64,000 bases of DNA from Escherichia phage MN05: sequence record NC_070987.1. One strand, written 5' to 3'. The notes beneath the pieces were generated by a model. It did no database searches. It was not told the origin of the DNA and saw only the letters and a program-made list of their open reading frames with translations. Numbering within the stretch: position 1 is the first letter of the stretch; the number at the start of each line of letters is the position of its first letter. The translations under genes were made by a program, and so were the position numbers. Positions 3,970-49,954 of this stretch are shown here, piece after piece.

Positions 3970-5004
3970 ATGGCATATGGAATATGGACACGCCCGGTTG
4001 GTCCGGGTCCAGCGGCACCTGCTGATATTTATATTGATAGTGGTAGCACATTCCCTCAACTCAGAAATAGAGTCAGTGGGAATTTCTCTTTTAGTGGAAA
4101 TACCTGTGACTTGCCTATAAGTGGTTGGGATGGTAGTGGTCAGATAGTTGTAGTCCCAACAGGGTCTGTTGTTTGGGAGAGATATATACCTCCTAATGTA
4201 ACGTCTGATGTGTATTGGCTAACGGATATATCTGTTATTAATAACTCAACCTTCAGGGTTACTATGGACTATAACGTAAACGGTTGGGTATTTGATATGG
4301 CTTTTAATGTATATCAAATATGGCCTAGAGCTAACAGGAACTATGGAATCACATTCTCCAACTCTGCTGACTATTTCTCAATCTCTGATTCTGGAGTTGT
4401 TGGTCAATGTATTTGGGCTTGGGAGGGTGACATAAACGGTGCTCTTCAAATACCAGATATTGGTGGTTTTGATATGAGCCGAGCAACTGTCTATGCGAAT
4501 TGGAGTAACGGCGGAGCAGGTCTGCTATACAACCCATCCAATAGGGTTGTTTATGTGTACCAGAACAGATCTCATGATAATGGTAACACAAACCAAACAG
4601 GATCAATTGGCGGTGTTAGAATTGCCGTCTTCTGTGATGGTTCTGGAGTACCAACTCATAATGGAGGTTTAAATATCTTCTCTCCAAATGGGTCTCAGTG
4701 TGTATTTTCTACATATAGAACCCCTTTTAGTGTTGAGAGATTTATGCCTATGAGTGGCGGTAACACATCTCTGGCCTATCCAATGATACCATTATCTTAC
4801 GGAGCAGGAGCAATAAGGGGCAAGGCTAGTGGTTGGTATTTTCAACACGCAAGATCTCACATGATGAATGGCTCTTCTTTCGGTACAGGTTTCGGAAGGA
4901 TGATTTACTCTTGGAGTAGTCAATATGATTTAGGAGGGGGTGGTGCCCTCGGGTTAAGTATTCCAATATTAGATGCTAGGAAAATATTCAGGAGTATACA
5001 ATAA
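3970..5004 (+). CDS. Tail fibre / tail protein (Gly/Asn/Ser-rich, beta-rich)
   Basis: Track ORF; starts 2 nt after the previous stop; composition typical of fibre or receptor-binding proteins. Confidence 0.45.
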   Translation: MAYGIWTRPVGPGPAAPADIYIDSGSTFPQLRNRVSGNFSFSGNTCDLPISGWDGSGQIVVVPTGSVVWERYIPPNVTSDVYWLTDISVINNSTFRVTMDYNVNGWVFDMAFNVYQIWPRANRNYGITFSNSADYFSISDSGVVGQCIWAWEGDINGALQIPDIGGFDMSRATVYANWSNGGAGLLYNPSNRVVYVYQNRSHDNGNTNQTGSIGGVRIAVFCDGSGVPTHNGGLNIFSPNGSQCVFSTYRTPFSVERFMPMSGGNTSLAYPMIPLSYGAGAIRGKASGWYFQHARSHMMNGSSFGTGFGRMIYSWSSQYDLGGGGALGLSIPILDARKIFRSIQ

Positions 5005-18074: not shown

Positions 18075-18096
18075 AAAAAAGCCACCCGGAGGTGGC
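18075..18096 (-). terminator. Rho-independent terminator (minus strand)
   Basis: GCCACC-CGGA-GGTGGC perfect hairpin followed on the minus strand by TTTTTT. Confidence 0.55.
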
Positions 18097-18118
18097 TAAG
18101 CTATAACAAGGAGAGTTA

Positions 18119-18865
18119 TCAGAATGGGCTATCGTTGTCGTCTTCGTAAGTAGAAGCAGGCTCTTTATCAATCGTAGGGATTGAAGGAGTAGCTTCTTTC
18201 TGCTCTGTTTCAGAAGCACGAGTAATTTCACGACCAGCCAGAGGCATGTTCTTAGCGTCATTAGCTTGAGTAAGCAGGTTGCGCTGGAACGGGAACATCA
18301 GTTGATAGGATGCTACGTTCTCATCGGTTTCAGCATACGGTTCGAAGAATACCAGAGGACTACGAGCTTCGCCAACTGCTGCACGATATTTGGTTGGGAT
18401 TGGAGAAATGGTCTTGATGGAGTTTTTAACTTCACCAGCTTTGTTAGTGTAAGAGTTAACCAGAATGTTAACAGGCTGACCTAACAGAACATCCTTGAAC
18501 CAAGACAGATCACCTTTCAGTGCTTGAATACTTGGGTCAATCATCTTGCAAAGATCAAGAATACCAGAGTTCTTAGCTCGTGGGTTTACATCATAGCTCT
18601 TGAACTGGCAAGCAGGACGTGGTTCTAATGCCTTACCATCGGAATCTTTACCAGTAGCATCAACACCAATCAGCTCGAAAGCCAAATCCATACGGAAAGC
18701 TGGATTCTTAGGAGTTACTGCTTTGGTCTTCGGGTCAATCCAAGGGTCACGATTGTGAACACCCAAACCTACTACACGAACGATACGTGCTTCGTATTCA
18801 CCATCAGGGATGATGTCGTAGTTGGATTTACGGGAAGAAGTTGCGATAGTTGGAATCATAGACAT
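18119..18865 (-). CDS. Putative ssDNA-binding protein (acidic C-terminal tail ending DSPF)
   Basis: Acidic C-terminus ending in Phe as in E. coli SSB and T7 gp2.5; position in the replication block. Confidence 0.4.
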   Translation of the reverse strand: MSMIPTIATSSRKSNYDIIPDGEYEARIVRVVGLGVHNRDPWIDPKTKAVTPKNPAFRMDLAFELIGVDATGKDSDGKALEPRPACQFKSYDVNPRAKNSGILDLCKMIDPSIQALKGDLSWFKDVLLGQPVNILVNSYTNKAGEVKNSIKTISPIPTKYRAAVGEARSPLVFFEPYAETDENVASYQLMFPFQRNLLTQANDAKNMPLAGREITRASETEQKEATPSIPTIDKEPASTYEDDNDSPF

Positions 18866-18925
18866 ATTTTAATTTCCTTATTTAATTTTGAAAGATTGTT
18901 GCTCTCTTTGAGCGGTTATGTATAA

Positions 18926-18934
18926 TATACATTA
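18926..18934 (-). promoter_or_regulatory. TAATGTATA motif (candidate phage-sigma promoter element), minus orientation
   Basis: Exact 9-mer about 60 nt upstream of the SSB-like gene start. Confidence 0.3.
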
Positions 18935-18986
18935 TAACTTTTGTAAGATAAGTATCATTTTATTGGTAGTAGATACTCACTAATGA

Positions 18987-18995
18987 TAATGTATA
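18987..18995 (+). promoter_or_regulatory. TAATGTATA motif, plus orientation, facing a 330-bp region with no plus-strand ORF
   Basis: Exact 9-mer divergent from the 18926 copy. Confidence 0.3.
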
Positions 18996-19299
18996 TAAGG
19001 TAGAGTTAGAGAATAACTCTTGCACGGGACTGACGACGATAAGGCGCAGACGACAATCTCTCATAAGTTTGTAAGAAATTGAGAGACTACCGGAAGGGCA
19101 GGAGCCACCTGCGAGATAAAAATAGAGAATTAAGGAATCCTTGATTTAGGTTGTAGGGACTCCTAGGGACTTTGATTCTCTATTTAAAAGAATATTAATT
19201 ACTTACTACCTAAATAATTAACTAGCTTACTTAAACCAAATTCAAGAATAATAGATAAAAAGATTATTCCTAAGAAAGCTAAGAAGTAAAGGATATAAG

Positions 19300-19464
19300 T
19301 TACCATTCAAGTAAACCTTTAAAATTAGATTTTTCTACTATCCTCTGATAATGAAGATTAGAATCAGCTTGTTTCTTTAACATCTCATTATATCTATCTC
19401 TGATAGAGTCTTTATAAACTACAGGTTCTTTAAATAATGAGATCTTGTTCTTTTCTTCTTTCAT
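19300..19464 (-). CDS. Hypothetical protein (54 aa)
   Basis: Track ORF 19300..19545 trimmed to ATG 19464 with SD AGGAAGG. Confidence 0.4.
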   Translation of the reverse strand: MKEEKNKISLFKEPVVYKDSIRDRYNEMLKKQADSNLHYQRIVEKSNFKGLLEW

Positions 19465-19933
19465 CGAAAACCTTCCTAATCTCTTGCAGAGAAACAGCTT
19501 TATAATTAATTTGCTCCATTGATGTACAGAAATATCTCCAATCATTAATTACATGGTTATGAGTATGAGCATAAATATTAAACTTCCCTCTCATCTCATC
19601 AGTGTGAATAGGAATATGAGTTACCCAAAACTCTTTATATTTATAATCACCAGAGATTCTACGGAAGACTTTCATCATATCAGGGAGAAGTTCTAACCTG
19701 TCATGGTTCCCTAAGACTAGATGCTTCTCTCCTCTAACTTCAGCGATGATATCAAGGGCATACTTTTCAAACACCCAATCACCGGTAAAGAAAACTTTAT
19801 CACGTTTGGTTACGTGGTCAAAAGCAGCCAGAATTGCTTTGTCATGCTCTTCAATGTTTTTAAATTGCTTACGAAAACTACAGATGTTGCGATGGCCTAA
19901 GTGACCATCTCCTGCAAAATAAACTTCAGCCAT
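19430..19933 (-). CDS. Metallophosphoesterase (calcineurin-like phosphatase)
   Basis: GDGHLGH...GDWV...GNHD...H.H motif series. Confidence 0.65.
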   Translation of the reverse strand: MAEVYFAGDGHLGHRNICSFRKQFKNIEEHDKAILAAFDHVTKRDKVFFTGDWVFEKYALDIIAEVRGEKHLVLGNHDRLELLPDMMKVFRRISGDYKYKEFWVTHIPIHTDEMRGKFNIYAHTHNHVINDWRYFCTSMEQINYKAVSLQEIRKVFDERRKEQDLII

Positions 19934-22151: not shown

Positions 22152-23996
22152 CTAGTGAGTATTCATCCAATTTAATCCAATCTGACAATCAGAAGCCAGA
22201 GGACATTCCATATTCAAATACTCACCAGCCTTCTTAACACAAAGCTCGGTGTGCTCTTTGAGTTTCTGTACATCGTTACGATTAACTGAGAATTGACCTT
22301 CATCGTGCATATCAATTACCTTAGCACAACGAACTCCATCCCTCTCAATCCACTTGTTTAGGAACATCATAGCATATTTCATAACAACAGCACCAGCACA
22401 TTGCAGGAGTGTGTTAAGAGCTTTATGAACCATAACTTTACCAGTTGCATCTCGTCTCATTGTAATCTTACGACCATCAACACCAATCAAGTATCCCTGA
22501 GCAGCCTTTTCTGTCATACGATCAATGAGGATTGCAATACATGGGTTCTCTGCCAAGAAACGTGCCCGCATCACTGAACCTTCGTCAGCCCCACCACCCA
22601 CAATTGAACCGAGCTTAGCATCACCAGCACCATAGTTGAATGCGTAGATAAATGTCTTAGCGTTGTCGCGAGTAGGAAGACCAGCAAGTTTCTGGTTGTG
22701 GGAGTGGATATCACCTTCAAGGAGAATATCACGATACATAATAGCAGAAGCTAAACCACGTTCTGCCAGAGCTTTCTTAGCTGGGTTGTTCTCTTCGATT
22801 GCCTCAGCAAGCATATCCCTACACTCTTTAATGAGGTAGTGAGCGAGCATACGAAGTTCAAGTCCAGAACCATCATACCCTAAGAATACTTCTTTACCAG
22901 CGGGTATGTAATATTTGTAAGCACCTACAGGTTTGTCTTTCTTCCCCGGCTTACCTTTCTCATAAATTACGTTAGTACCTTTTCGTATATAACAACCATC
23001 AGGAACAACGTTAGTAATAACGAAAGGACGAGAGTGATCACTGTCTGAGTTATAGTCAGACTCAAACAAACTGCGACACTCATGACCAAACAAACCACGG
23101 GAGGGAATATTAACCACGATACGATGTTTGAATCGAAAAGTCGGCGTAGCGCAGCTGTTAGCTTCTGCCGAAAGTTTACCATCTTCGCGTTCCTTTGCTA
23201 TGAGTCCACTGATAAGACCTAGCCTGTGAGCCGCTACAACGCGCCTCTTAAGCAAACTTCCGACACTCCCTAGCTCACCCCCTAACCCCTCTTCAAGAGT
23301 CTCCTCGAGGTTTGTAGGAGCTGTAGGCCACTTGTTTGAGGTAGCTAGTGCTATCTTAATCTCATCAAAAGTGATAGGTCTACGTCGGTTAGGGTTTAAA
23401 CCTAAACCAAACACATAAGCCTTCATATAGTTCTTAGTTTTAAACCTAAAATGCTTCTCTAAGAACTTCCTAATATCAGCGTCAACCATCTCGGCTGTCT
23501 GTTTCTTTTTAGCATTACCTTGTATCCAAGCTGAATACCACGCTTGATATGTTCCATACTTTCTTATATCTTTCTTAATTTCAAAAGTATTCCAAGGTTT
23601 CTTTGATACGTTAAACTCTGGAGGAAGAAAACCCTCATCCATAAGGGCTTCTTTAACTCGTGCATCTTTCGATGGGTCAAAGTCTACGTACTCTACACAG
23701 GTGAAAGCTCCACCAATGTCTTCTCTCTTCAGCCCAACCCTATCACAATAGGCTTGAGGCCACTTCTGTAAAGCTCCAGACTTCTTAAACGGCTTCATGT
23801 AAGTAGAGCCATCTAATCTCATCTTAGGTAAGAGAGGAATCAACTCTCTGTCAATATTAACAATAATCTCTTTAAGGAGGTGAACATACCACCGAGCATT
23901 TCTTCGGTTGAAACTCACTCCGTGCTTTGCTTGCTTAGAGATTATATCAGCGACAGTCATCTCTGTCAAAAATGGAAGAGCGTCCGGGTTGCTCAC
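22152..23996 (-). CDS. Family-A DNA polymerase, polymerase domain only
   Basis: Motif A DGSGLELR, motif B RDNAKTFIYAFNYGAG, motif C HDE; GTG start with SD AAGGAG; no 3'-5' exonuclease domain in this ORF. Confidence 0.8.
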   Translation of the reverse strand: MSNPDALPFLTEMTVADIISKQAKHGVSFNRRNARWYVHLLKEIIVNIDRELIPLLPKMRLDGSTYMKPFKKSGALQKWPQAYCDRVGLKREDIGGAFTCVEYVDFDPSKDARVKEALMDEGFLPPEFNVSKKPWNTFEIKKDIRKYGTYQAWYSAWIQGNAKKKQTAEMVDADIRKFLEKHFRFKTKNYMKAYVFGLGLNPNRRRPITFDEIKIALATSNKWPTAPTNLEETLEEGLGGELGSVGSLLKRRVVAAHRLGLISGLIAKEREDGKLSAEANSCATPTFRFKHRIVVNIPSRGLFGHECRSLFESDYNSDSDHSRPFVITNVVPDGCYIRKGTNVIYEKGKPGKKDKPVGAYKYYIPAGKEVFLGYDGSGLELRMLAHYLIKECRDMLAEAIEENNPAKKALAERGLASAIMYRDILLEGDIHSHNQKLAGLPTRDNAKTFIYAFNYGAGDAKLGSIVGGGADEGSVMRARFLAENPCIAILIDRMTEKAAQGYLIGVDGRKITMRRDATGKVMVHKALNTLLQCAGAVVMKYAMMFLNKWIERDGVRCAKVIDMHDEGQFSVNRNDVQKLKEHTELCVKKAGEYLNMECPLASDCQIGLNWMNTH

Positions 23997-30228: not shown

Positions 30229-30300
30229 AACTCTCTCCTGTAAAATACAAATTCTTATTGTACTCTATATACATTTGAGAGTTATCATATCTACTACCAA

Positions 30301-49878: not shown

Positions 49879-49954
49879 TGGTGCACCCTACAGGACTCGA
49901 ACCTGTAACCAACGACTTAGAAGGTCGCTGCTCTGTCCATTGAGCTAAGGGTGC
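49879..49954 (-). tRNA. tRNA-Arg (anticodon TCT), CCA encoded
   Basis: 76-nt cloverleaf folded by hand: 7-bp acceptor stem, D-arm GCTC/GAGC, anticodon loop CTTCTAA, T-arm ACAGG-TTCGAGT-CCTGT, 3' ACCA. Confidence 0.85.

Follow-up and report, generated by a model that had tools for sequence, protein, structure and literature searches.

The OOP RNA of phage lambda is a 77-nt RNA that has its own promoter, is convergent with the cII mRNA and overlaps its 3' end, and is RNase III-dependent; it was once proposed as a replication primer. Phage T7 has the orphan promoters phiOL/phiOR and a primary origin at phi1.1A/B, and oriF and oriG of phage T4 are middle-promoter origins. phiEco32 is a model for phage sigma-factor replacement, and its transcription map has been held complete with six gp36 promoters. 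Synthesis by the gp36 holoenzyme is stimulated by gp79. Kuraviruses are common in phage-therapy collections. Pavlova et al. (2012) are said to have described the gp36-dependent promoters of phiEco32, including the middle promoter P68.

These promoters are recognized by E. coli RNA polymerase with gp36, the sigma factor of phiEco32, and six of them were reported, upstream of genes 6, 13, 26, 40, 58 and 68 (PMC4331800). Their consensus, TAATGTATA, was determined experimentally (PMC4331800; SU10 paper). In the open-complex structure of P68 (2025), AATG occupies positions −14 to −11, which places AATGTA at −14 to −9, and the C-terminal domain of gp36 reads G-37 together with the base pair at A-34. 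Mutation of G-37 or A-34 abolishes transcription from P68, and the contacts at −14 to −11 are likewise essential (PMC12276001).

The gap between the homologues of phiEco32 genes 40 and 41 was analysed here in the window, by which we mean the whole 64,000-nt stretch of Escherichia phage MN05 DNA. With moderate confidence, we consider that this gap contains an unannotated small RNA gene driven by gp36. For any specific function of the predicted RNA our confidence is much lower.

Gene organization around the gap

The window is Kuravirus (phiEco32-like coliphage) DNA. Its positions 18800-19500 match 97 phage records at 60-95% identity, all of them from phages of E. coli or Shigella that belong to the phiEco32 group, which comprises Kuravirus and the sister genera Suseptimavirus and Nieuwekanaalvirus; NC_010324 was used as the phiEco32 reference record. 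The features of the locus are collected in Table 1.

The first-pass annotation had treated the region as intergenic up to 19299. The gene-41 homologue fills 19199..19306, so the last ~100 bases are coding and the real gap is 18866..19198. This homologue closes the converging minus-strand unit and was found in most relatives. The ECBP2/Paul/Bas87 group lacks gene 41, and there a phosphoesterase gene ends directly at the long hairpin described below.

The description of the left neighbour, the gene-40 homologue, as SSB-like found no support in Pfam, PHROGs or PDB sequence searches, which returned no Pfam match, PHROG function or PDB sequence match for it. The SSB hint consists only of an acidic C-terminal tail (...EDDNDSPF) and two GenBank annotations (Ptacy1532 and Ptacy1479), and a single-sequence AlphaFold model was unusable (mean pLDDT 36.5). 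Just 3' of this gene, at 18080..18097 (−), AGCCACCTCCGGGTGGCT and then TTTTTTCG make up a canonical intrinsic terminator. Gene 40 therefore seems to be a short transcription unit of its own, running from P40 to this terminator.

Table 1. Coordinates of the features in and around the gap between the gene-40 and gene-41 homologues (window positions)
Feature	Position	Strand	Basis and remarks
Sigma-like gene, counterpart of phiEco32 gene 36	16922-17566		
Gene-40 homologue, 248 aa	18119..18865	−	ORF; synteny with phi32_40; phrog_6599, function unknown
P40, known gp36-dependent middle promoter	18919..18958	−	Motif and published lists; inferred start ~18919
Orphan gp36-type promoter	18963..19001	+	Motif, hexamers and P68-like layout
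Predicted non-coding RNA, ~185 nt	19002..19187	+	Fold, no ATG or GTG; 3' end inferred
5' hairpin, AGAGTTA/TAACTCT, loop GAGAA	19002..19020	+	Begins at predicted +1; covariation
Middle module type A, 68 nt	19021..19088	+	Alignments
Near-invariant 3' domain, 99 nt	19089..19187	+	Alignment of 97 records
3'-domain hairpin GCAGG/CCTGC	19098-19102/19108-19112	+	Predicted
3'-domain lower stem	19120-19130/19175-19185	+	Predicted
3'-domain hairpin a	19131-19135/19139-19143	+	Predicted
3'-domain hairpin b	19147-19150/19162-19165	+	Predicted
Long hairpin as predicted minus-strand terminator	19114..19185	−	Fold; U-run UUUUUAUCU at 19122..19114
Gene-41 homologue, 35-aa hydrophobic peptide	19199..19306	−	ORF; synteny; phrog_24970, E = 4e-23

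A second gp36-type promoter in the gap

Five exact copies of TAATGTATA occur in the window, compared with 0.75 expected from shuffled sequences, and none of 100 shuffles reached five. The copies reported earlier at 18934..18926 (−), 60 nt upstream of the ATG of the gene-40 homologue at 18865 (−), and at 18987..18995 (+) were both found at these positions. What had been called divergent motifs are, judged by their sequence, two back-to-back gp36 promoters in one gap.

The minus copy belongs to P40, which has ATGATA at −39 to −34 (G-37 at 18956, A-34 at 18953) and AATGTA at 18933..18928 (−14 to −9). P40 is listed as the gene-40 promoter of phiEco32 (PMC4331800) and appears in Table S2 of the SU10 study, whose promoter table gives it as the sole promoter for the gene 40/41 gap (SU10 paper). 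The gene-40 homologue is transcribed from P40.

The plus copy belongs to the promoter designated here the orphan promoter. TTGGTA at 18963-18968 occupies −39 to −34, with G-37 at 18965 and A-34 at 18968, and AATGTA at 18988-18993 occupies −14 to −9, giving a predicted start at ~19002. Both sequence features of the gp36 class, the tAATGTAtA element and G-37/A-34, are present. The orphan promoter and P68 have in common the tAATGTATAtA element and, in the window and in phiEco32, a 13-nt TTGGTAGTAGATA block at −39 to −27 that includes G-37 and A-34. The layout TTGGTAGTAGATA-N11-(T/A)AATGTATA, with the same spacing, is found in the orphan promoter and in P68, both in phiEco32 and at 30276 (−) of the window. 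Unlike P68, the orphan promoter aims away from all nearby genes. All genes downstream of it lie on the minus strand, and it serves no co-directional protein gene, there being no plus-strand ORF of at least 30 aa for more than 500 nt; the earlier remark that the plus strand lacks an ORF holds for such ORFs between 18925 and 19553.

The P68 homologue of the window reads AAATGTATA at 30276..30268 (−), with the upstream block TTGGTAGTAGATAT at 30300..30287 (−), and a 14-nt upstream block is common to it and the orphan promoter at the same spacing. Further gp36-type motifs, at 4305 (+), 9557 (+, P26-like) and 25567 (−, P58-like), are without G-37/A-34.

TAATGTATATA of the orphan promoter was invariant in 20 of 20 aligned sequences. 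The motif was kept together with G-37 and A-34 in 29 of 30 sampled sequences; a single metagenome contig has TAATGTATACA instead. In the ES17/myPSH2311 group, an insertion of ~140 bp separates the two promoters, and in these genomes the plus promoter, with its G-37 and A-34, remains beside the downstream segment. It is therefore apparent that the orphan promoter belongs to this segment and not to P40. The insertion (L002, L020 and L025-L028) opens with a CTACCGGAAGGTAG hairpin and TAGGTTTTGT, which together look like a plus-strand terminator. The insertion also resembles the ACTACCGGAAGG stretch of the type A middle module, a sequence likeness that suggests repeated recombination in the gap.

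The orphan promoter is absent from the six mapped gp36 promoters and from the SU10 promoter table. An earlier bioinformatic study scanned only the strand co-directional with the genes, which would have hidden it. No plus-strand feature is annotated at the downstream segment in any of 26 records inspected, 25 of which have no feature there at all, and the feature is currently unannotated in the Kuraviruses relevant to phage therapy.

Conservation and distribution of the segment

Positions 19088-19195 of the window were at least 91% identical in each of the 97 records, and in most of them the identity was 99% or close to it. The 3' domain of the predicted RNA was 93-97% identical in genomes in which the DNA of gene 40 was 80-82% identical. 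Conservation had been proposed as a check on the first-pass reading, and the segment turned out to be better conserved than the adjacent gene. In phiEco32 the counterpart of the predicted RNA is ~156 nt long (NC_010324, 36719-36874).

Relatives at 67-69% gene-40 protein identity (L007-L009, IMG/VR contigs) do not have the element. A profile search with the 3' domain, covering the window and the loci of distant relatives, found a single copy in the window and none in L007-L009. Protein-anchored searches of viral and metagenome contigs yielded few new variants. Of six further GenBank records, three repeated known sequences, two brought minor new variants, and in one locus the 3' boundary pattern was not found, so that the diversity hardly grew. 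L007-L009 carry instead an invariant non-coding block with AGCTA repeats (GGAAGCATCTAGCAAAGCTAGCATATCAAAGCTAAGCTAAGCTATATGC), ~60-130 nt upstream of the gene-40 homologue, and this block holds the same genomic position as the element.

Structure of the predicted RNA

The arms of the 5' hairpin are AGAGUUA/UAACUCU in the window, AUAGCU/AGUUAU in phiEco32, AUAGUU/AACUAU in ECBP2, AUAGCU/AGCUAU in the SU7 group and AUAGA/UCUAU in KBNP1711. Covariation was counted on 24 distinct sequences. Compensatory double changes were seen at pair 2/18 (UA or GC) and pair 5/15 (CG, UA or AU), and pair 4/16 alternated between GC and GU, as seen across 10 sequences. Since a G·U pair becomes an A·C mismatch on the opposite strand, the pairing works on the plus strand only. 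The observed covariation score was reached by none of 500 shuffles, and the paired fraction was 99%, compared with 36-54% in slid controls. The 5' hairpin of phiEco32 also folds only on the plus strand (−2.4 versus 0 kcal/mol). The covariation in relatives that the first-pass annotation had called for was thus found in the 5' hairpin, at two double-change pairs and one GC/GU pair; the other four helices are invariant in their internal pairs.

The middle module exists in two types. Type A, present in the window, holds the hairpin TCTCTCA/TGAGAGA (19057-19063/19080-19086). Type B, present in phiEco32 and most relatives, is unrelated and shorter. The two types assort freely with the variants of the 5' hairpin and of the 3' domain.

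Both repeats pointed out earlier in the 3' domain were recovered. GAGAAT (19125-19130) and ATTCTC (19175-19180) form the core of a longer inverted repeat (19120-19133/19172-19185; 14 nt, 93% complementary), and the direct repeat TAGGGACT occurs twice, at 19154 and 19164, 10 nt apart. Among distinct sequences the domain varies at 11 sites by one- or two-base indels and substitutions. Eight of these sites lie in predicted loops, one change gives a G·U pair, and two hit terminal pairs (Fisher p = 0.05 for loop versus stem, a test that is partly circular since the three-way model was picked after the variants had been seen). The internal pairs never vary and so give no covariation evidence on structure or strand. 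A minimum-free-energy model with one long single hairpin was rejected: its pairs are broken by a U-to-C change in TH42 and by a 2-nt deletion, and the three-way model is preferred for this reason. Five A(N)GGA motifs lie on the plus strand within ~75 nt of the domain, a modest enrichment assessed post hoc (p ~0.01), and the tandem copies switch from AGGGA to AGGA together in one lineage.

Strand asymmetry and termination

In phiEco32, the plus-strand fold of the RNA (−45.8 kcal/mol, z = −2.2) is more stable than the minus-strand fold (−35.3 kcal/mol, z = −1.6) by 10.5 kcal/mol. In the window, the plus strand gave −52.3 kcal/mol (z = −3.0) and the minus strand −48.8 kcal/mol (z = −4.3; slightly longer stretch). 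The window version thus has the lower z-score on the minus strand, which counts against a plus-strand RNA.

The terminal hairpin, with an 11-bp base stem, gave −18.2 kcal/mol on the minus strand (z = −3.6) and −23.5 kcal/mol on the plus strand. The U-run that follows it on the plus strand is short, UAUUUAAAA (UAUUU) in the window and UAUUAAAA in the ECBP2 group, so that termination of the plus RNA may be inefficient. In the genomes inspected, whichever gene comes last in the converging operon has its stop codon within a few tens of bases of the hairpin. The converging operon, whose last gene is the gene-41 homologue, likely has its intrinsic terminator in the long hairpin. For this operon the hairpin makes a credible terminator; for the plus RNA it is a weaker one. 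A consensus terminator scan made no call at the long hairpin, whose loop exceeds 8 nt. The same scan found no consensus plus-strand terminator within 4 kb downstream, the first match being at 23309. Some plus transcription may therefore run on, antisense, over gene 41 and beyond. If both the plus and the minus RNA end at the hairpin, they would be complementary over ~70 nt.

The arrangement resembles bidirectional intrinsic terminators in that a hairpin, bordered by an A-run and, opposite, by a T-run, stands between convergent units. It differs from them in that the hairpin is 66 nt long, branched and AU-rich at its base, in that the U-run is strongly asymmetric (good on the minus but poor on the plus strand), and in that its conservation far exceeds the needs of a terminator.

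These data bear on an alternative in which the segment acts only on the minus strand or at the DNA level, terminating the converging middle operon, providing a processing site for it or stabilising its 3' end. The plus promoter would then be a by-product, either a duplicated P68 module or a local gp36-RNA polymerase booster for P40, and its transcript would be functionless. The constant position of the hairpin near the stop codon of the last minus gene in every genome inspected fits this explanation, as do the strong U-run on the minus strand only and the fold z-score on that strand; a terminator followed by a promoter is moreover a normal phage arrangement. On the other hand, 99 nt at 93-100% identity is more than a terminator needs. 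The 5' hairpin covaries in a way that requires G·U pairs on the plus strand, and it lies beyond the minus U-run, out of reach of a terminated minus transcript. In addition, the plus promoter is as well conserved as P40 and, in the insertion variants, travels with the RNA and not with P40. We therefore regard an action restricted to the minus strand or the DNA as unlikely, and equally so a plus promoter that is only a by-product.

Replication and recombination as alternative explanations

The orphan promoter could also be a transcription-activated or transcription-primed replication origin, whose RNA would open or prime the DNA for the phage primase-helicase. As at the T7 and T4 origins, a phage-specific promoter without a gene is followed by an AT-rich stretch (19186-19300, 3' of the hairpin, 15-27% G+C), and the same transcription unit encodes a T7-like replication set (primase/helicase and DNA polymerase). 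The RNA strand is rich in purines and in G, a composition favourable for R-loops. However, the AT-rich stretch is not conserved as such: most genomes have a coding gene there, and the ECBP2 group has unrelated sequence instead. GC skew changes only with the orientation of the genes and shows no extremum around 19 kb, and there is no iteron array, only two 8-nt repeats. The predicted RNA also differs from the T7 and T4 cases in being structured, and selection on a 5'-terminal RNA hairpin is not expected of a simple primer. An origin at this position is accordingly improbable.

The invariant block might instead be a recombination linker between exchangeable modules, kept alike by frequent homologous exchange. 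The independent assortment of 5' hairpin variant, middle type, 3' variant and downstream gene content would agree with such a linker, but module exchange can be a result of conservation rather than its cause. The complete promoter, the covariation of the hairpin and the confinement of variation to predicted loops would be left unexplained, and we consider this explanation very unlikely.

Coding capacity and database searches

Positions 19002..19190 contain no ATG or GTG, and the only ORFs are two that begin with TTG, of 20 and 21 codons, neither preceded by a Shine-Dalgarno sequence. No reading frame is conserved, since each TTG ORF is either disrupted by natural 1-nt indels or missing in type B. 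The natural 1-nt and 2-nt indels, together with the lack of ATG and GTG, argue against coding. That the transcript encodes a micro-peptide from 19020-19082 (MHGTDDDKAQTTISHKFVRN) or 19079-19144 (a basic 21-mer) is hardly credible: the first ORF is open in ECBP2, with five of eight substitutions at third codon positions, and the second is open from its TTG in type B too, but the first is missing in the majority type B, natural 1-nt indels (columns 121 and 135) frameshift the second in many genomes, and these frameshifts argue so strongly against coding that the micro-ORFs were rejected.

The gp36-driven RNA gene that we favour lies outside every curated RNA family. In Rfam searches, the whole window at the gathering score gave only a tRNA, and 18700-19500 at E values up to 10 gave nothing credible. 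ARAGORN reported only a tRNA-Arg, elsewhere in the window. A similarity search of E. coli genomes with the segment produced nothing beyond a 21-nt match in a prophage gene, attributable to chance. Readings of the RNA as 6S-like, put-like, pRNA-like, Y-RNA-like or ToxI-like were dropped because no matching feature was seen. No description of a small RNA of phiEco32 was found in the literature searched. The proposal of a non-coding RNA in the first-pass annotation was borne out in promoter spacing, the 5' hairpin, the lack of coding potential and conservation, the transcript itself being predicted. Public RNA-seq data of Kuravirus infection, taken at 10 min with phages PX402466 and PX402468, exist as BioProject PRJNA1225266 (PMC12803456).

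A model for the predicted RNA

In the proposed model, P40 would drive the gene-40 homologue leftward, and the P68-type promoter would fire rightward from ~19002 at middle times of infection. The product would be a non-coding RNA of ~185 nt (~156 nt in phiEco32). The hairpin that begins at +1 probably protects its 5' end, and the middle module, exchangeable between type A (as in the window) and type B (as in phiEco32), would be either dispensable or specificity-conferring. The invariant 99-nt 3' domain, which closes in the long branched hairpin, would be the functional portion. Its unpaired loops containing A(N)GGA may bind a partner, either a protein or another RNA, and the domain may also pair with the 3' end of the transcript that converges on it. 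Flanked by an A-run and a U-run, the hairpin would terminate the converging minus operon, so that the two transcripts overlap at their 3' ends.

By analogy with lambda OOP, the RNA may be an antisense partner of the converging transcript. Like OOP, it is predicted to be short and non-coding, to have its own promoter, to be convergent with an operon and, given the 3' ends assumed here, to have a terminator hairpin in common with that operon and hence a complementary 3' end. It differs from OOP in being about twice as long and driven by a phage sigma factor. Barring read-through, the overlap would cover only the untranslated terminator region and no coding sequence, and the conservation is far above what cis-antisense pairing needs.

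The A(N)GGA motifs provide a lead, and only a lead, toward a protein sponge of the CsrB/CsrC/McaS type. The likeness, taken from the primary sequence, consists of the five motifs and of the AGGGA to AGGA changes in both tandem copies; unlike in CsrB, CsrC and McaS, there are only four to five motifs, and two lie partly inside predicted stems. In a broader form, the predicted RNA would be a modular effector, in which an invariant scaffold binds a protein of the host or of the phage and a swappable A/B module tunes specificity. The partner of the scaffold could be, for example, a CsrA-type global regulator bound through the A(N)GGA loops, and gp36 would switch the RNA on at host takeover. We rate this proposal as quite doubtful. 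As for a trans-acting sRNA of the Hfq type, k-mer complementarity of the RNA to phage mRNAs was no better than that of shuffles, leaving no seed excess, and the U tail is short. Furthermore, the 5' and middle parts are the least conserved parts of the predicted RNA, which speaks against a seed of that type.

If the gene is real, a seventh complete promoter adds a missing player to the phiEco32 transcription map, and a new RNA family joins the very few small RNAs listed for strictly lytic phages. It is a predicted gene for a small phage RNA, in a model phage that is well studied, and, should the RNA act as a modular effector, the phiEco32 group would have its first functional small RNA. The claim can be tested with the existing gp36, gp79 and promoter assay of the 2025 structure paper.

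Other features of the window

A sigma-70 promoter with perfect consensus lies within the minus-strand gene block at 23969..23941 (−). It consists of TTGACA, a 17-nt spacer and TATAAT (12 of 12 matches), with an upstream TG. The tRNA-Arg, called by both ARAGORN and Rfam, has the anticodon TCT and is located at 49879..49954 (−).
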